64,000 bases of DNA. It comes from an uncultured Mollicutes bacterium. Its GTDB lineage: Bacteria > Bacillota_I > Bacilli_A > RFN20 > CAG-826. The translations under genes and the position numbers were made by a program. This document shows positions 4,406-35,966 of this stretch, in pieces (position 1 is the first letter of the stretch; every line of letters starts with the position of its first letter). Below the pieces are notes generated by a model, which was not told the DNA's origin, ran no database searches, and saw nothing but the letters and a program-made list of their open reading frames with translations. The stretch lies in contig UQFQ01000001.1 in NCBI GenBank assembly GCA_900540395.1, positions 21,809 to 85,808 on the forward strand, written 5' to 3'.

Positions 4406-6551
4406 TGAAGTTAAAGAGTTTGTATACACTGATAGTAGTGACGTAGAGCATAAAATTCATATAAGATCCAATTCTTTTGAATTCGCTCAAAAAGATAAAA
4501 GCATTCATGATACAAAATTTAAAACAAAACCAACAACCTTCTTAAAAGACGCTTTTAAGAGATTTTGTAAAAACAAATCATCTGTTGCTGGTGCAATTAT
4601 CTTAGGTATCTTACTTTTAGGAAGTATTATTATTCCTATTGCAGACACTTATGATATTGAAAATCAACATCCAAACGAAACATTCCTTGAGCCAAAATTA
4701 TTCCCAACTGGAACTGGTTTTTGGGATGGTACTAAAAGAATGACTGATGTACCAGTTGATCCTTCGACACTTCAAGCTGGTGATGATGGAAATACTTATG
4801 GTTATCCTTTCTCATCACAATATCCATCAAATAGTGTTTTAAATCTTTCTCCAGCCAGACAAGGTTATGTTAACACTGCAACAAGTTCAGCAAGCGGTGG
4901 TTTTATTAATTTAACCAATCTTAACGAACTCGTTACTGAAGAAGATAATGAAAGTGTTCTTAATAGTAAAACTATTTATTATCGTTCAAGCGATTTTACA
5001 ATTCAAAACTTCTCTGAAGCTTTACAATATCGCTTCGAAATTACTCTCCTAGATGAAGATGTTGAAAACTACCCAATTGGTGAATATGGTGTTTTCATCA
5101 CTTATGAAGCAATTGATTTAGAGAGTGGTGAAACTGCTGAATACGAACTTACATTAAAAGATTATGAAGATACACCTCAATATGTTGAAAATACTGAGAC
5201 TGATGTAGTTGGCAATGAAGTTCGTACAAATAAATTAGTTATTGCAAATTGCTTATCTGGAATTAATGACAATACAGCAATCGATTTAACTAAACTAATA
5301 ACAGCCAATATTGAAATTAGATTACGTCCAAATGTTAATAGCACAAGTTCTTTATTTATTAAGAGCATTCAACTTTTTGAAGGTGAACTTGCTGTTAATA
5401 ATGTTAGTTGGACTGATGCTAATGCTAATGCCTTAGTTTCAAGTAGTGCTGATAATTATTGGACTTCAAATGGTAGAATCAATTTCTATCATGGTATTAG
5501 CTGGGTTTGTGATTTTACTTTTGATACCTATGCAGTACCTTACGGAAATCGTAGTCAATCAATCGCTCAAGCTGATCTTGTTGAATATATCAATAATGGT
5601 TGGTTAAGCGCCGATTTACTTCCATATAATGAAGAGACAGGGACTTATAGCAACGCTATTTTAAGAAATTGGTATCAACTATCCTTAAGAAGTCCAAACG
5701 ACGCCTCAGAAATTCTTCAACCTGAATTTGAAAAATATTTCACTGATTTATCAGAAAATTATCTTCCAATTATCAGCATAACTAGTATTAGAAGTACAAC
5801 TTCAAGCGGAATTACTGTTTACACATTAAACTGTGTTGTTAGCGGTTATAAAGTTCTTGGTTATACATCTCAGCCAATTTTCCTTCTTGGAACTGATAAC
5901 TATGGTTATGACATGCTTAAACGTGTCTTTACCGGCTTATTAACTTCTCTTGGCTTAGGTATTCTTATTTTTGCCATTTGTTTCTCCTTTGGTTTAATTT
6001 ATGGTGCAATTTGTGGATATTTTGGCGGAAATATCGATATTGCCCTTCAAAGATTCTGTGATCTTTTAAGTGGTGTTCCATGGATTGTTATTATGACAAT
6101 CTGTATCTTAAATTTAGGTAGTAACTTTGGAACATTCATTCTTGCTATGTGTATGACAGGATGGATTGGCACTGCTAGTTTAACCAGAACTCAATTCTAT
6201 CGTTTTAGAGATAGAGAATATGCTCTTGCTAGTAGAACACTTGGTGCAAGTAACTTTAGATTAATCTTTAAACATATTTTACCTAATGCTATGGGTACAA
6301 TTATTACAAGTGCTGTTTTAATGATCCCAAGTGTTATCTTTACTGAAGCAACAATTTCTTATTTAGGTCTTGGTTTCCAAGATATGCAATCTTTGGGTGT
6401 TATTCTTTCTGATAACCAAACCTATCTTAATACGTACGCTTACTTAATCCTTTTCCCAAGTGTAATTATGGCTTTAATTATGATTAGCTTTAACTTATTT
6501 GGTAACGGTTTAAGAGATGCATTCAATCCATCGCTAAAGGGGAGTGATTAA
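4398..6551 (+). CDS. oppC: Oligopeptide ABC transporter permease OppC with ~400-aa extracytoplasmic insertion
   Basis: Start trimmed to ATG 4398, which overlaps the oppB stop. TM1 is followed by a long soluble region, then GTDNYGYDML (OppC N-terminal motif), a BPD-type membrane core, and C-terminal GNGLRDAFNP. Confidence 0.85.
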   Translation: MDNEVKEFVYTDSSDVEHKIHIRSNSFEFAQKDKSIHDTKFKTKPTTFLKDAFKRFCKNKSSVAGAIILGILLLGSIIIPIADTYDIENQHPNETFLEPKLFPTGTGFWDGTKRMTDVPVDPSTLQAGDDGNTYGYPFSSQYPSNSVLNLSPARQGYVNTATSSASGGFINLTNLNELVTEEDNESVLNSKTIYYRSSDFTIQNFSEALQYRFEITLLDEDVENYPIGEYGVFITYEAIDLESGETAEYELTLKDYEDTPQYVENTETDVVGNEVRTNKLVIANCLSGINDNTAIDLTKLITANIEIRLRPNVNSTSSLFIKSIQLFEGELAVNNVSWTDANANALVSSSADNYWTSNGRINFYHGISWVCDFTFDTYAVPYGNRSQSIAQADLVEYINNGWLSADLLPYNEETGTYSNAILRNWYQLSLRSPNDASEILQPEFEKYFTDLSENYLPIISITSIRSTTSSGITVYTLNCVVSGYKVLGYTSQPIFLLGTDNYGYDMLKRVFTGLLTSLGLGILIFAICFSFGLIYGAICGYFGGNIDIALQRFCDLLSGVPWIVIMTICILNLGSNFGTFILAMCMTGWIGTASLTRTQFYRFRDREYALASRTLGASNFRLIFKHILPNAMGTIITSAVLMIPSVIFTEATISYLGLGFQDMQSLGVILSDNQTYLNTYAYLILFPSVIMALIMISFNLFGNGLRDAFNPSLKGSD

Positions 6552-30851: not shown

Positions 30852-31853
30852 ATGGAAACTTTATTAAAAGTAGATAACTTAGCTAAATTTTTTGGAGCAA
30901 CCCAGGTTTTAAAAGATATTTCTTTAACTGTTAATAAGGGCGATGTTATTTCAATTATTGGTCCTAGTGGTAGTGGGAAATCAACCTTTTTAAGATGCTT
31001 GAATCTTCTTGAAGAACCAACAAGAGGAAAATTAACTTACCTAGATAAAGTTTATTTTAGTGTTAGTAAGTGCAAAGATGATTTTGTTGATTATGCTAAA
31101 TATCAAGAAGATTTAAAAAAATATGAAGATAGATTAGTTGAAACTGAAGACAACTATGCTATATATAAAAACAAGTTAATTGAAGATAAAACTAATAAAG
31201 AATATAAACTTAAAGCTAAAGAAGCAAAAAAGGAATTTAATGAAGTTAGAAAACATCCTATTTTAAAGAAAGATTATTTTAATAAAGAAGGCTATGAAGA
31301 AGCGATTAAAAATTCTCCTTCTTTTACAATTAATCAAAAAGAAATTAATGAGATTAGAACTCATGTAGGGATGGTCTTTCAATCATTTAATCTTTTTAAT
31401 AACTACAATGTTTTAGATAATTGCATTCTTGCACAGACAAAAGTATTAAAAAGAAAATATGATGAAGCAAAAGATATTGCTATTAAAAACTTAACTAGAG
31501 TTAATATGCAAGATCGTATGAACTATAAAATTTCAGAATTAAGTGGTGGGCAAAAACAAAGAGTAGCTATTGCAAGAACTTTGTCGATGAATCCTTCAAT
31601 TATTTTATTTGATGAACCAACGAGTGCTCTTGATCCTGAAATGGTTGATGAAGTTTTATCAGTTATGAAACGACTAGCTGAAAAAGGAATGACGATGATT
31701 GTGGTGACTCATGAAATGAACTTTGCTAAAAACGTTTCTAATAAAGTTGTCTTTATGGAAAATGGCTATGTTGTAGAAAGTGGTAATCCAAAAGATATTT
31801 TCGATAATCCAAAAACAGAAAGACTAAGAGAATTTCTTAAATTGGACAAATAA
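30852..31853 (+). CDS. Polar amino-acid ABC transporter ATPase (GlnQ/HisP-type) with ~90-aa charged insertion
   Basis: [47 protein letters not shown]. The extra K/E-rich segment lies between LEEPTRG and the Q-loop. Confidence 0.9.
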
Positions 31854-32140: not shown

Positions 32141-32923
32141 TTATTTTAACTTTGAAAATACGCTACCAATACTATCGTTAATAATAAGTTTTACATTTCT
32201 ATTTACATGTAATTCACTTTTGTTAATGATGACGATATTATCACCAAAAAAATATCGTATTAAACCATTTGCTGGATAGACATTTAAAGAAGTGCCAGCA
32301 ATAATTAGTAGGTCAGCTTCTTGAAGAGCAATGATTGATTTTGTTAGGACCATTTCATTTAAAGGTTCTTCATAAAGGACAACATCAGGCTTAATAATCC
32401 CTCCACATTTAAGACAATGTTCTTCTGGAGCAAGCGCTAAAAAATCTTTAAGATCATAGAAACGACCACATTTTGTACAATAGTTTCTATGAATAGAGCC
32501 GTGGAGTTCAACGACATTTTTACTCCCAGCTTGTTGATGAAGAGCATCAATATTTTGAGTTACTATCGTGATATGTTTGCCATTCTTTTCTTTATCTGCT
32601 AAATATTTGTGAGTTATATTAGGTAAAGCATTTTGATTTATCATAAATTCACGATAGAACTCAAAAAACGTTTTGGTGTGATTTATAAAATAAGTGTGAG
32701 AAAGCATTTCTTCATATGGTTTATCATATTTGCTTTTCAGCTTATATAAACCATTTTCACTTCGAAAATCAGGAATGCCGCTTTCTGTTGAAACTCCGGC
32801 TCCGCCAAAGAAAACGATATTTTTAGCATTATCTATTAAGGCTTGTAACTCTTTAATTTTGTCTAAACTATTATCTTCCATAACAAAATTATAAATATTT
32901 TCAAAAGAAGTGAATAGTGGCAT
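32141..32923 (-). CDS. cobB: NAD-dependent protein deacylase, Sir2/CobB family
   Basis: GAGVSTESGIPDFRS, QNIDALH, zinc ribbon CTKCG...CLKCGG. The start may instead be the internal Met at 32881 (MEDNSLDKIKEL). Confidence 0.85.
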   Translation of the reverse strand: MPLFTSFENIYNFVMEDNSLDKIKELQALIDNAKNIVFFGGAGVSTESGIPDFRSENGLYKLKSKYDKPYEEMLSHTYFINHTKTFFEFYREFMINQNALPNITHKYLADKEKNGKHITIVTQNIDALHQQAGSKNVVELHGSIHRNYCTKCGRFYDLKDFLALAPEEHCLKCGGIIKPDVVLYEEPLNEMVLTKSIIALQEADLLIIAGTSLNVYPANGLIRYFFGDNIVIINKSELHVNRNVKLIINDSIGSVFSKLK

Positions 32924-32935
32924 AATTTTAGCAAT

Positions 32936-33024
32936 GGCGCAATGACGTAATTGGTAGCCGTATCGGTCTCAGAAGCCGATGAACCGAAAGGTTCGTGGAA
33001 GTTCAAATCTTCTTTGCGCCACCA
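32936..33024 (+). tRNA. tRNA-Leu, anticodon CAG
   Basis: Hand-folded cloverleaf: acceptor GGCGCAA/TTGCGCC, anticodon arm TCGGT-CTCAGAA-GCCGA, long variable arm GAACC-GAAA-GGTTC, T-loop TTCAAAT, encoded CCA. 89 nt. Confidence 0.85.
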
Positions 33025-33076
33025 TCTTATAACTAACATTTTGATACAATTAATGGTTTCAAAATTAATGATATTT

Positions 33077-33100
33077 GCTCGAGAAATCGGGCTTTTTTTT
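33077..33100 (+). terminator. Terminator downstream of tRNA-Leu(CAG)
   Basis: GCTCGA-GAAA-TCGGGC hairpin followed by T8. Confidence 0.55.
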
Positions 33101-33109
33101 CATTTCAAG

Positions 33110-33197
33110 CGTTTTGCTAGTAGATAAAAATTGATTTGAATCTACGGATTTTAGAATTTTGGTTCTGCTAGAAAAATGAAAGCCTACTAGCAAAACG
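33110..33197. repeat. 14-bp perfect inverted repeat separated by 60 nt
   Basis: CGTTTTGCTAGTAG (33110-33123) and CTACTAGCAAAACG (33184-33197), between the tRNA and the HTH gene. Confidence 0.8.
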
Positions 33198-33324
33198 TAT
33201 ATTTACTAGAAAAAGATATCCTTATGAATCCACAATTTTATTTTAATTAAGCGGCAACATAATGACTATGAATAAGTTAAATCTATTTGTTGTTTTTAGG
33301 TCGGTTTACCGATATAATATTGGT

Positions 33325-33714
33325 ATGACATTTTTAGATTTATTAGCTTTTAAAAAAACAACAGTTTATGCGTTATCCAATAAAAGTGGGATTCCGAAAA
33401 CCACTTTATTTGATATTGCGTCTAGTAAGACAGACATTTTAGAGTGTTCTGGTAAAACATTATTAGCAATATCAAAAAGTTTAAATATATCAATTGAAGA
33501 GTTACTTTCACTAGAAAAAGAAGAATCTAAAACTTTGTTGCCTTTATTTTTATATGATGCGATTTCAGAATATAGAAAATCTATACGTGAGAATAGCTCT
33601 TTATTAGATTGCTATAGCGACCAATTAAATAGTTCTATCAATGTTGCTGAAGTTGAACATCTCATTTCGAAAGAACAAGCTGATCGATTAAGAGCAAGAT
33701 ACTTTAGGAGATAA
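33325..33714 (+). CDS. XRE-family helix-turn-helix protein (HipB-like antitoxin/regulator candidate)
   Basis: HTH_3-like TVYALSNKSGIPKTTLFDIASSK...LLAISKSLNISIEELL. The ORF-track start 33262 is less likely because a TTGTTT-17-TATAAT promoter lies inside that extension. Confidence 0.7.
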   Translation: MTFLDLLAFKKTTVYALSNKSGIPKTTLFDIASSKTDILECSGKTLLAISKSLNISIEELLSLEKEESKTLLPLFLYDAISEYRKSIRENSSLLDCYSDQLNSSINVAEVEHLISKEQADRLRARYFRR

Positions 33715-33721
33715 ACACTAT

Positions 33722-34609
33722 ATGATTAATTTTACAAATTTTCCGATAAGAAAAAAGGCGTATGGGGGTGCGAATGGGAATAAACTATCGGTAGTTTATA
33801 ATGATGATCTTTATATGATCAAGCTCCCGATGCACGCCATTAAAAATCCTAATTTATCATACACGAATAGTTGTATTTCTGAATATTTAGGTTGCCGTAT
33901 TTTTAATATGTTAGGAGTAAAAGCACAAGAAACATTATTAGGAGTATATGAATTTCATGGAAAAGTTAGAAATGTTGTTGCGTGTAAAGATTTTACTTCT
34001 ATAAACACTATATTGATTGATTTTGCATCAGTAAAAAATCAAATTATCGATTCTGCTTCAAATGGATATGGAACTGAATTGACCGATATTCTTGATACTA
34101 TTGAGAAACAAAATGCCGTCGATCCTAAAGAATTAAAAGAACATTTTTGGGATATGTTTGTTATTGACGCGTTTATTGGTAACTGGGATAGACATAACGG
34201 TAATTGGGGTTTTTTATATAACCAAGAAAACGATGAAATGAAAATTGCTCCAATCTTTGATTGTGGTTCATCGTTGTTTCCTCAAATTGACGACGAATTA
34301 ATTAAAAAAGTTATGTCATCTAAGACAGAAATGGACGCTCGCGTTTTTGATATGCCAACTTCTGCAATACTAGTAAAAGGAAAAAGAGGCAATTATTTTA
34401 GAATGATAACATCCTTGGAATACAGTGACTGTAATGAAGCAATCAAAAGAATCGTTCCTAAAATCAATCTTAAACAAATTAATTCATTAATTGACGAAGT
34501 GGAGCAAGCAAGTGATTTACAAAAATTATTTCTTAAAAAAATACTAAAATTACGTAAAGAAAATATATTGGATTATGCACTTATGAAATTGACTCAAAAC
34601 ACCTTATAG
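33722..34609 (+). CDS. HipA-family Ser/Thr kinase, C-terminal domain only (short form, 295 aa)
   Basis: FIGNWDRHNGNWGF matches the HipA catalytic loop pattern (G.tD.H..N). IAPIFDCGSSL matches the Mg-binding D. AGGAG RBS. 7-nt gap after the HTH gene. Confidence 0.7.
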   Translation: MINFTNFPIRKKAYGGANGNKLSVVYNDDLYMIKLPMHAIKNPNLSYTNSCISEYLGCRIFNMLGVKAQETLLGVYEFHGKVRNVVACKDFTSINTILIDFASVKNQIIDSASNGYGTELTDILDTIEKQNAVDPKELKEHFWDMFVIDAFIGNWDRHNGNWGFLYNQENDEMKIAPIFDCGSSLFPQIDDELIKKVMSSKTEMDARVFDMPTSAILVKGKRGNYFRMITSLEYSDCNEAIKRIVPKINLKQINSLIDEVEQASDLQKLFLKKILKLRKENILDYALMKLTQNTL

Positions 34610-34619
34610 GAGTTTAGAA

Positions 34620-35150
34620 ATGTTTAATGTTAACGATGAAATATCAATCAGCGATATTAAATACACAATAGTAAAACTTTTAGGACATGGTAAAGGTGGA
34701 TATTCATATTTAGCAACAGCTGATAATAAAAAATATGTATTAAAACAAATCCATCACGAGCCTTGTTCTTATTACCAATTTGGTAACAAAATCGAAGCCG
34801 AATTACATGATTATGAGCGACTTCTTAAAACAGGAATTAGAATTCCTAAATTGATCGCGTTTGATAAAGATAAAGAAATAATCATTAAAGAATATATTGA
34901 AGGACCAGTCTTATCTGACCTAATTAAATCAAATAAAGATATAACAATTTATATTAAGCAAATGAAAGACATGCTTCCTAATATTTATAGTGCAGGTCTT
35001 AATATTGATTATTATCCAACAAATTTCATTATCAATAAGAATGATAATTTAATTTATTACATTGATTATGAATGCAATTTATACGATGCAAAATGGGATT
35101 TTGATAATTGGGGAATAAAGTATTGGAATGGCAGTGAAAAACTAATTTAA
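34620..35150 (+). CDS. Minimal protein-kinase-like protein (Bud32/RIO/COG2112-like, 176 aa)
   Basis: Gly-rich loop LGHGKGGYSYLA, beta3 Lys in YVLKQI, hinge IIKEYIEG, catalytic-loop-like NIDYYPTNFII, DFG-like YYIDYE. AGGAG RBS. 10-nt gap after the HipA-like gene. Confidence 0.55.
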   Translation: MFNVNDEISISDIKYTIVKLLGHGKGGYSYLATADNKKYVLKQIHHEPCSYYQFGNKIEAELHDYERLLKTGIRIPKLIAFDKDKEIIIKEYIEGPVLSDLIKSNKDITIYIKQMKDMLPNIYSAGLNIDYYPTNFIINKNDNLIYYIDYECNLYDAKWDFDNWGIKYWNGSEKLI

Positions 35151-35384
35151 GAATGAAAATGGTATCGTTTTCTAGTAAAGATATTATCTTGCTATATTTT
35201 GTATTAAAGCGATAGCACAAAGACAATCTCGAATATCAGCACTAAAGTGCTATTTTATTTGAGTAATAGTTAGATAAAACTAAAGAAGTTTTCTTCCGAT
35301 AAAACCACAAGCCTGTAAGAAGCATTTTAGGTGAGATGCATAATTGCTGTTTTACCTGATTTAAATTATAAAGAAGAATCATTG

Positions 35385-35815
35385 AAGGACAATGTCCCTC
35401 AAAATGTCCCTCAAAATGTCCCTCAAAATTGATTTAGCAAAAATTATTGATGCTATAAAAGAAAAACCAAGAATAACTAGATAAGAGTTAGTTTCTGTTA
35501 TTGGAAAAAGTGTTAAAACAGTAGCAAGAATTCTTTGGTGTATGAATAATGGTAACTATTCCTTTTGATAGAAAAGGTTTTAATGTGAACAATGACTTCA
35601 CAATAAACCTCACAATAAATTGTTTAACTGAATTAGAACGAGTTATATTAGAGGAAATTAGTAATAATTGTAAAGTTGTAAGAGATGGTTTGTAGTCTAA
35701 GATAGGTAGGTCTTCTGATCATACCCAACGAATTTTAGATACTTCGGAAAATAAAGGATATATCAGAAGAAAAAGTTAAGATAAATCAAGTATTGGAAGA
35801 TTTTAAAATAATGAC
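35385..35815 (+). pseudogene. Decayed 3' part of a repeat-plus-double-winged-helix regulator gene (AlbA_2/ATPase-HTH-type C-terminus)
   Basis: NVPQNVPQNVPQ repeat, then after a frameshift KIDLAKIIDAIKEKPRITR*ELVSVIGKSVKTVARIL. A second module reads LTELERVILEEISNNCKVVRDGL*SKIGRSSDHTQRILDTSENKGYIRRKS*. Multiple in-frame stops. Confidence 0.6.
35391..35428 (+). repeat. 3 x 12-bp perfect tandem repeat (AATGTCCCTCAA)
   Basis: Read directly. Encodes NVPQ x3 inside the pseudogene. Confidence 0.9.
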
Positions 35816-35966
35816 AAATAAAGTTATTTTCAAAAAAGATGAAGAATTTTAGCCAATAATTTTGTTTATAGAATTAGTAAAATTTAACTATTTAAATGAG
35901 CAGGTAAACCGTCATCTACGAAATCTTTTGTGCAAACTATTTATATTTTTATGGTATTATTTTTGC

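Follow-up and report, generated by a model that had tools for sequence, protein, structure and literature searches.

A CtkA-type kinase gene and its small upstream partner probably form a self-contained module beside an unrelated minimal-kinase gene

Organization of the locus

In the window, that is, the whole 64,000-nucleotide stretch of DNA from an uncultured Mollicutes bacterium that was analysed, three closely spaced genes follow a tRNA gene on the same strand. The main features are as follows:

32936-33024, + strand: tRNA-Leu(CAG) found by ARAGORN (Rfam tRNA, 51 bits), directly 5′ of the three-gene block
33077-33100, + strand: terminator-like hairpin with a T-run, which ends the tRNA transcript and is kept in the loci L001, L017, L018 and L019
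33325-33714, + strand: gene 1, 129 aa (a longer 150-aa ORF begins at 33262), with a Cro/cI-type HTH (residues ~1-65) and a conserved helical partner domain of ~55 aa (residues ~73-127)
33722-34609, + strand: gene 2, 295 aa
34620-35150, + strand: gene 3, 176 aa
35238-35258, + strand: terminator-like site 3′ of gene 3; the shared block stops at ~35225

Re-reading of the sequence bore out the layout given in the first-pass annotation. All three genes lie on the + strand, with gaps of 7 nt between genes 1 and 2 and of 10 nt between genes 2 and 3, and the AGGAG ribosome-binding sites of genes 2 and 3 are located at 33706-33710 (11 nt 5′ of the ATG) and 34608-34612 (7 nt 5′ of the ATG), respectively. 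The motifs quoted there could also all be found, namely FIGNWDRHNGNWGF and IAPIFDCGS in gene 2 and GHGKGGYSY, VLKQ, EYIEG, DYYPTNF and IDYE in gene 3. Each of the three is a real gene with numerous conserved homologues. No terminator was found between genes 2 and 3, and an Rfam search of 32800-35900 gave no match besides the tRNA. The neighbours of the block in the window are transport and metabolic genes.

Gene 2 encodes a CtkA-type kinase

The gene 2 product matches HipA_C (PF07804) with 42.3 bits (cutoff 30.5, E = 8.8e-11), confirming its assignment to the HipA_C kinase superfamily. It aligns over its full length with CtkA of Helicobacter pylori (JHP0940; PDB 3AKJ, 3AKK and 3AKL), residues 2-289 matching residues 4-289 of 3AKJ with E = 5.7e-94. 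The motifs YGGANGNK, GNWDRHNGNWGF (D156, N161) and IFDCGS (D180) are invariant in a 12-sequence alignment and align with CtkA, so that the two proteins have the same Gly-rich loop, DRHNGNWGF loop (the catalytic loop of gene 2 includes DRHNGN) and IFDCGS Mg-binding motif. Both are of the same size class and consist of a core kinase without the HipA N-subdomain. Gene 2 had been called N-terminally short, and the N-terminal subdomain of HipA is indeed absent: the Gly-rich loop already begins at residue 14, and neither Couple_hipA nor HipA_N gave a match at E <= 1 in gene 1, 2 or 3 (Pfam). However, gene 2 is a full-length CtkA-type protein and not a truncated HipA, since the short form is the normal architecture of CtkA (3AKJ) and of the short Hip kinases (PMC8262856). 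A strong match was also obtained to the HipA-like kinase PDC-M03A of the PADLOC candidate system PDC-M03 (E = 7e-30); unlike in that system, the HIRAN-domain second component (PMC13245101) is absent here, and genes 1 and 3 have no PDC-M03B/HIRAN match.

In the literature CtkA is seen as a host-directed effector, reported to act on host cells via Tfs3, a type IV secretion system (T4SS) (PMC5536186), and the full-length homology raises the possibility that gene 2 is likewise a secreted, host-directed protein with the small partner as its chaperone. We consider this highly improbable. Gene 2 (295 aa, compared with 325 aa for CtkA) lacks the positively charged C-terminal KRRR tail that CtkA needs for T4SS-dependent activity, there is no tfs3 ICE/T4SS context and secretion genes were not found nearby, and the family is widespread in metagenome-assembled genomes of commensal Bacilli and Clostridia.

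Gene 1 carries a conserved partner domain and its own promoter

The description of gene 1 as an XRE-type HTH protein was borne out by a match to HTH_26 with a score above the Pfam gathering score (E = 1.8e-5). In Foldseek comparisons, its HTH (residues ~1-65) superimposes on the HTH domains of P22 c2 and SinR with an RMSD of 1.2-1.5 Å. The C-terminal half is poorly modelled (pLDDT 37-60), and neither Pfam nor the PDB gave a match to its ~55-aa domain. Comparison of the gene 1 model, which is of low confidence, with Stl N-terminal fragments gave E ~0.09 at an rmsd of ~12 Å (Foldseek), and that of the partner domain with VbhA gave an hhalign probability of 23%. Proteins of 60-100 aa encoded upstream of gene 2 homologues carry the same domain on its own; nothing else is present in the short partners of 63-89 aa, and the 50 representative clusters of the domain are mostly 60-100 aa. 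On a C. fetus plasmid, a 68-aa ORF upstream of the kinase fits the partner-domain profile with a probability of 98.8%.

Gene neighbourhoods were surveyed for the best 80 loci per family, for gene 2 on metagenome contigs and for gene 3 in species-representative genomes. A gene 1 homologue is present on 61 of the best 80 contigs anchored on gene 2, and the loci whose kinases are 84% and 80% identical to gene 2 hold an HTH_26 + HipA_C pair and nothing more. The distance between the end of the upstream ORF and the start of the kinase is -7 to +13 nt in nearly all loci, and the downstream neighbours differ. At the level of gene order, these surveys show the ~55-aa domain to be a constant, tightly coupled upstream neighbour of CtkA-type kinases across phyla. 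The published CtkA work that we found describes no cognate partner of this kinase; the situation differs here and in Campylobacter, with a conserved partner ORF directly upstream of the kinase.

The region upstream of gene 1 contains two further elements:

33290-33318, + strand: promoter, with -35 box TTGTTT (33290-33295), -10 box TATAAT (33313-33318) and a 17-nt spacer
33301-33312, + strand: candidate palindromic operator TCGGTTTACCGA, within the spacer between the -35 and -10 boxes

At ~30 distinct loci the layout TTGAAA-N17(TCGG-N4-CCGA)-TATAAT precedes a homologue of gene 1, including homologues as little as 33% identical to it; within the window the promoter-operator layout occurs just once, the number of chance matches expected being 0. 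This recurrence shows, as far as comparison of sequences can, that the gene 1 + gene 2 pair brings a conserved promoter of its own, which carries a palindrome in the spacer from the -35 to the -10 box. Since the conserved promoter falls within the longer ORF and the homologues are 127-130 aa long, the start of gene 1 at 33325 is supported. Its ATG lies 6 nt after the -10 box, which implies a leaderless mRNA, and the start of the pair in this family is apparently leaderless. Within the pair, gene 1 can be regarded as a putative autorepressor and kinase-neutralising partner, and gene 2 as a putative effector or toxin.

Gene 3 belongs to a large family of minimal kinase-like proteins

The AlphaFold model of gene 3 (pLDDT 91.9) has a protein-kinase-like fold, and Foldseek assigned it a probability of 1.0 to PknB, YabT, RIO2 and PRPK, with query-normalised TM-scores of 0.56-0.69 to RIO2 and 0.58-0.61 to Bud32/PRPK. 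Profile scores are all below cutoff (Pkinase 22.5 bits, cutoff 31.7; RIO1 16.2, cutoff 22; Bud32 32.8, cutoff 199). Residues G22/G24/G26, K42, E59/E61, D130, N135 and D149 are invariant in an alignment with 15 homologues. The fold and the conserved ATP-binding and catalytic residues agree with the earlier view of gene 3 as a stripped-down protein-kinase-like protein, and the fold (AlphaFold, Foldseek), together with the lack of a Couple_hipA/HipA_N match, also upholds the statement that it is not HipS-like. Like Bud32/PRPK and RIO, gene 3 has a truncated kinase-like fold, which stops a short way past the DFG-equivalent motif; unlike them, its family has invariant motifs of its own, HHEPC and YECN, and no Kae1/KEOPS context. 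The 174-aa 'putative Ser/Thr kinase' of 8YV4/8YV5 was considered as a relative of gene 3 and rejected, the match being weak and no describing paper having been found. Gene 3 stands for a minimal-kinase family of gut anaerobes that is uncharacterised, strongly conserved and very large: it has at least 8000 homologues of ~177 aa, and species-representative genomes hold at least 569 of its loci.

Association of gene 3 with the pair

The first-pass annotation had proposed a three-component HipA-type system, in which gene 3 would be a decoy or antitoxin of gene 2, a co-toxin alongside it or a kinase that activates it; a second kinase acting as third partner in a HipA system would have meant a novel toxin-antitoxin architecture. 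The 10-nt gap, the separate AGGAG of gene 3 and the lack of a terminator between genes 2 and 3 speak for such a system, as does the finding that the trio forms a single 2.15-kb block, which follows a different tRNA in each of three species representatives (it is kept in at least three, in three different upstream contexts). The surveys speak against it. Gene 2 adjoins gene 3 in 3 of the best 80 gene 3-anchored genomes (L016, L017 and L019, 98-99% identical to the window), the association being confined to loci of 97% identity or more, and is missing from the other 77, while none of the best 80 gene 2-anchored metagenome contigs carries gene 3. The two genes do not occur together at any of nine viral loci (six for gene 2 and three for gene 3, among 2.9 million viral contigs), gene 3 is found at neither of two plasmid gene 2 loci, and no gene 2-gene 3 fusion is present among the homologues listed. 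Nor was a recurrent neighbour of gene 3 found among its best 80 genomes; solitary homologues that are 84%, 65% and 57% identical to it lie in housekeeping contexts. In comparison with 15 homologues, most of them solitary, gene 3 of the window keeps all 60 invariant positions, which points to an unchanged function.

Comparison with related loci locates the pair relative to gene 3 as follows:

33100-33224, + strand: conserved leader with CTAG boxes, 82% identical (blastn) over L018 4543-4745
33225-34597, + strand: inferred inserted segment, comprising promoter/operator, gene 1 and gene 2; homology to L018 and L001 breaks off there

Both L018 and L001, loci of close relatives in which the site is empty, carry gene 3 in the absence of genes 1 and 2, a further point against a three-component system. 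In L018 the leader (window 33023-33224) is followed by gene 3, and in L001 the tRNA trailer alone is shared (window ~33000-33100, to the terminator) and is then followed by gene 3. Homology to these loci stops at ~33224 and restarts at 34598, 22 nt before the ATG of gene 3. A second copy of the leader is present in L015 (7356-7495). Because the leader precedes gene 3 in relatives without genes 1 and 2, it is, judged by these alignments, part of the pre-existing locus and not of the inserted module. Within the leader, a perfect inverted repeat of 14 bp (33110-33123 / 33184-33197; folding z = -2.6) was considered as a conserved RNA and rejected, the stem being broken without compensation in L017 and L018. 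The block had also been placed in a tRNA-linked island. A tRNA does adjoin it, yet no integrase, phage gene, tRNA-fragment direct repeat or shift in GC content or composition is seen, and a classical genomic island was rejected; what is found is just an insert of ~1.4 kb in a variable slot.

Gene 3 is probably co-transcribed here with the upstream pair by read-through, and it shares the transcript solely because the pair has been inserted between gene 3 and its former upstream region. With that region replaced, gene 3 now needs read-through or an internal promoter, which counts in favour of a functional connection. Nevertheless, gene 3 belongs to a huge stand-alone family that does not co-occur with HipA-like genes elsewhere in the loci surveyed, and a three-component system is very unlikely. 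On the genomic evidence, gene 3 is a widespread, stand-alone resident mini-kinase and not a component of the module, and its adjacency is accidental, the pair having come to lie beside it in a single lineage of gut bacteria. There is also a slim chance that gene 3 was captured by the inserted operon in one RF39-type Bacilli lineage and acquired cross-talk. Once captured, gene 3 might use the partner or the CtkA-type kinase as a phosphorylation substrate, or the autorepressed promoter might now determine its dosage; if true, the capture would represent a young, lineage-specific three-component kinase system.

Proposed role of the pair and relation to known systems

We favour, with a probability of roughly 0.7, the reading that the locus comprises a self-contained gene 1 + gene 2 module beside an unrelated resident gene 3. 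By architecture, genes 1 and 2 are an ordinary short HipA-homologue two-gene module similar to hipRG, and short Hip kinases of this sort, preceded by the gene of an HTH partner, have already been classed as putative toxin-antitoxin modules (PMC8262856). As in hipRG, the kinase is a short core enzyme without N-subdomain-1 (279-321 aa class; 295 aa here), an HTH-containing putative antitoxin lies upstream (gene 1, with its HTH_26 domain, ends 7 nt before gene 2), and no Ser/Thr is seen by eye right before the Gly-rich loop of gene 2 (KKAYGGANGNK). In contrast to hipRG, what is conserved in the partner here is a non-HTH domain of ~55 aa, and a Stl-like fold is unsupported beyond the HTH. With HipBA and HipBST the locus shares a HipA_C kinase, an upstream HTH gene, a tight operon and likely autoregulation through a palindromic operator. 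It differs from HipBA in that gene 2 lacks the HipA N-subdomain-1, and from HipBST in that there is no HipS-like protein, the Hanks/RIO/Bud32-like fold of gene 3 being unrelated.

Genes 1 and 2 are probably a toxin-antitoxin-like pair; of the toxin-antitoxin or defence role first suggested for all three genes, the part concerning genes 1 and 2 is plausible, but gene 3 is not included in it. In the proposed mechanism, a gene 1 dimer would bind TCGGTTTACCGA and repress the apparently leaderless gene 1-gene 2 transcript, while the C-terminal helical domain of gene 1 would bind and silence the kinase. Were the partner to be lost or titrated, through stress, phage attack or loss of the element, phosphorylation of an essential target by the kinase would bring growth to a halt; the analogy with HipA and HipT suggests that this target may be a translation factor, for instance an aminoacyl-tRNA synthetase. 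Gene 3 would keep its own conserved role, separate from the pair.

An HTH partner with a conserved operator, and chromosomal copies situated among ordinary genes, would also suit a regulatory kinase/transcription-factor pair, in which the kinase phosphorylates the HTH partner or another regulator with no growth arrest. This appears unlikely. Most partners are proteins of 60-100 aa without a DNA-binding domain, which means that the partner's conserved role is not control of transcription, and the characterised HipA_C-superfamily kinases are growth-arresting toxins (PMC8262856). The distribution of the pair is also patchy and independent of context: its plasmid copies adjoin Fic and VbhA, and ctkA is carried as ICE cargo, in a place that AbiE and Fic modules can take instead (PMC12443045, PMC5536186). 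Occurrence on plasmids, at ICE cargo sites and beside Fic, VbhA or AbiE is typical of addiction and defence modules.

CtkA, studied as an H. pylori virulence effector only, is a member of a large family whose kinases nearly always have a small, tightly coupled partner upstream. This suggests that the CtkA family is basically an intracellular module of the toxin-antitoxin or defence type. The partner domain is a concrete candidate antitoxin for CtkA-type kinases, and is here fused to an HTH in a putatively autoregulatory protein. As the module is rare on viral contigs, a phage origin was rejected; the closer homologues of gene 2, at four of the six viral loci and on the C. fetus plasmid, have the partner upstream of them.

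Gene 2 encodes a CtkA-type kinase

The three same-strand ORFs of the first-pass annotation, with gaps of 7 and 10 nt, are present, as are all the motifs quoted from them and the AGGAG sites 11 nt 5' of the gene 2 ATG and 7 nt 5' of the gene 3 ATG. The three-gene finding as originally proposed is not supported; the locus holds a short HipA-homologue module of an already-known kind (hipRG type, CtkA family).

Features of the locus in window coordinates
32936-33024, tRNA-Leu(CAG)
33077-33100, terminator-like site, left flank
33290-33295, -35 box
33301-33312, palindrome TCGGTTTACCGA
33313-33318, -10 box
33325, gene 1 ATG, 6 nt after the -10 box
33325-33714, + strand, gene 1, HTH protein, 129 aa (150 aa from an alternative upstream ATG at 33262)
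33722-34609, + strand, gene 2, CtkA/HipA-type kinase, 295 aa
34620-35150, + strand, gene 3, mini-kinase, 176 aa
35238-35258, terminator-like site, right flank

The HipA_C profile matched gene 2 with 42.3 bits (gathering score 30.5), which upholds its assignment to the HipA_C superfamily, and the same search returned no match to the HipA N-terminal domain. A profile built from gene 2 and 11 homologues matched a single structure set, that of Helicobacter pylori CtkA (3AKJ, 3AKK, 3AKL), end to end (E = 5.7e-94). Gene 2 thus belongs to the short core-kinase branch as an ordinary member, and is not the N-terminally shortened HipA that had been suggested; its family proved very large in the homologue search. 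Hip kinases of 279-321 aa without N-subdomain-1 (HipG, HipM, HipI and HipJ) have been described, and the gene for HTH-containing HipR precedes that for HipG (Gerdes et al. 2021, PMC8262856). In PADLOC, gene 2 matched the candidate family PDC-M03A (E = 7e-30), PDC-M03 being a short Hip-type kinase with a HIRAN protein (PMC13245101).

CtkA is viewed in the literature as a host effector delivered by a T4SS (PMC5536186), and a secreted effector with its chaperone is accordingly one reading of the pair, in our view a very improbable one: unlike H. pylori CtkA, gene 2 lacks the KRRR tail. The CtkA literature also records ~50%-identical homologues without this C-terminal tail in other gut bacteria. 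Within ICEs, the ctkA gene itself sits in a cargo slot where AbiE-type or Fic modules can stand instead (PMC12443045, PMC5536186). Fic-family genes and VbhA-type antitoxins also recur beside CtkA-type modules in our comparison loci (Campylobacter fetus plasmid pCfviMP1, L176 2784-4771; a Megamonas plasmid, L177 1478-3933; L008 3001-4888). At 320 aa, the C. fetus kinase has the C-terminus ...NKKLRR, which resembles the KRRR tail of CtkA, and its small upstream partner is still there.

Gene 1 carries a conserved partner domain and a conserved promoter

At nearly all loci, an ORF upstream of the kinase ends between -7 and +13 nt from the kinase start. The HTH nature of gene 1 was confirmed (HTH_26, E = 1.8e-5), and AlphaFold models this domain with confidence (pLDDT 81-93); it superposes on the P22 c2 and SinR domains at 1.2-1.5 Å. 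The C-terminal helices were modelled with low confidence. The conserved part of gene 1, however, is not the HTH domain but the C-terminal ~55 residues, with the consensus LPxFL...DCYxxQLxSSINxAEVExxISxEQAxxLRxxY. Searching 1.84 billion representative proteins with gene 1 residues 71-129 retrieved 50 clusters, most of 60-100 aa. The HTH domain would also suit a non-toxic regulatory kinase paired with a transcription factor, which we consider unlikely; about eight of these clusters are HTH-fused, and partners of 63-89 aa consist of the partner domain alone. The 68-aa ORF upstream of the CtkA homologue on the C. fetus plasmid matches the partner-domain profile with 98.8% probability. Against Pfam and PDB the domain gave no match, and it resembles VbhA only marginally. 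The domain and its link to CtkA are a modest new lead.

One promoter layout recurs 5' of gene 1 homologues at ~30 distinct loci, even where identity falls to 33%: TTGAAA/TTGACG, a 17-nt spacer holding TCGG-N4-CCGA, and then TATAAT. This conserved promoter fixes the gene 1 start, its -10 box so close to the ATG implies a leaderless transcript, and it makes genes 1 and 2 a self-contained transcription unit. The layout also argues for autoregulation of the pair.

Overall, we favour an autoregulated two-gene module, with a probability of about 0.7: the C-terminal domain of gene 1 would silence the kinase of CtkA type, and the HTH domain of gene 1 would repress the operon. By analogy with HipA and HipT, we infer that the freed kinase would be toxic, phosphorylating an essential target and arresting growth.

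Gene 3 is independent of the pair

Among the contexts viewed individually, the trio recurred in L015 alone, a contig syntenic with the window and matching it at 98% identity. Gene 3 served as anchor in species-representative genomes, where it has at least 569 loci; in the best 80 of these, tblastn found gene 2 three times (L016, L017 and L019), adjoining gene 3 and each 98-99% identical to the window. HipA-like neighbours of gene 3 were restricted to these three near-identical loci. Conversely, gene 3 was found on 0 of 80 gene 2-anchored metagenome contigs (gene 2 at 47-81% identity), 61 of which carry a recognizable gene 1 homologue. A true three-component system, as first proposed, is thus highly improbable. 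Solitary gene 3 homologues of 84%, 65% and 57% identity adjoin ProRS and tRNA-Ser, an ABC-2 exporter and Ham1, and an alpha-amylase; gene 2 homologues (84% and 80%) lie in an HTH_26-HipA_C pair followed by a 600-700-bp gap, and viral contigs and plasmids likewise keep genes 2 and 3 separate. Neighbour clustering in the 80 genomes anchored on gene 3 revealed no dominant partner; the commonest specific neighbours were GNAT acetyltransferases, a weak association seen at 10 of 80 loci and in one fusion protein (P0088). A terminator scan of the block found none between genes 2 and 3, so that in the window gene 3 is probably transcribed by read-through.

The kinase-like character of gene 3 was borne out by its AlphaFold model (pLDDT 91.9), a minimal protein-kinase-like fold ending shortly after the DFG-equivalent IDYE motif and closest to PknB, YabT, RIO2 and Bud32/PRPK. 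In profile searches, its matches to Pkinase, RIO1 and Bud32 all stayed below threshold, and the PADLOC PD-T4-6 kinase domains matched weakly. The Gly-rich loop, K42, E59/E61, D130, N135 and D149 are invariant, among 60 such positions that include the family-specific HHEPC (45-49) and YECN (150-153), together a possible Cys/His metal site; gene 3 most probably encodes an ATP-dependent enzyme that is active. This uncharacterized, conserved mini-kinase family (~177 aa) is very large: it has at least 8000 database matches, and species-representative genomes hold at least 569 loci. Bacilli and Lachnospiraceae members share ~57% identity, and the family also extends to Treponema and Succinivibrio-type genomes.

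The module occupies a recombination slot

In L018, a locus with gene 3 at 86% identity, blastn places the ~200-bp leader (window 33023-33224) ahead of gene 3, with genes 1 and 2 missing. L001 (gene 3 84% identical) also lacks both and shares upstream only the tRNA trailer (~33000-33100). In both, homology resumes just 22 nt 5' of the gene 3 ATG, with its GGAG site kept. The segment 33225-34597 is therefore taken as an insertion into an existing leader-gene 3 unit, insertion being likelier than deletion because gene 3 is solitary across classes. The 2.15-kb block (33073-35225) is present in three species representatives (96-98% identity), behind a different tRNA gene in each, and short dispersed repeats lie in the flanks. 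We read the slot as a hot spot of recombination and not as an island bearing an integrase; a tRNA-linked island, as envisaged earlier, is not supported. The neighbours are transport and metabolic genes of an ordinary kind, and GC content is flat.

The tRNA-trailer element of ~200 bp (window 33025-33224, L015 7356-7495, L018 4543-4745, L001 3337-3413) comprises a terminator hairpin and then CTAG boxes such as TACTAGAAAAA. Related genomes keep it behind various tRNA genes, and L015 has a second copy that lacks a tRNA; the element may be a dispersed repeat mediating rearrangements, and its 14-bp inverted repeat showed no covariation support. At the right end of the block (~35165-35230), a ~60-bp sequence present three times in L016 (1124-1183, 2695-2759, 4327-4386) suggests another dispersed repeat at this boundary. 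A perfect tandem repeat of 12-nt period (AATGTCCCTCAA) occupies intergenic positions 35391-35429, downstream of gene 3, and overlaps a minus-strand terminator-like hairpin (35402-35382).

Gene 3 and the GT2 glycosyltransferase are separated by a strain-variable slot (35226-35603); in the otherwise syntenic L015 (6505-8243), it is replaced by ~1.7 kb holding 180-aa and 92-aa ORFs, both without a Pfam match, and the second leader copy. In L018 (~4860-4990), a 41-aa ORF (MNFGKESEILEFKES...) between leader and gene 3, which resembles the N-terminus of AlbA_2/Schlafen-type proteins, may be what is left of another cargo gene in that slot. Further upstream in the window, the ABC domain of the ABC-transporter ATPase (30852-31853) is interrupted after its Walker A region by ~100 residues rich in Lys and Glu, where local GC dips to 0.24; in the L015 orthologue, Pfam splits the ABC_tran match.
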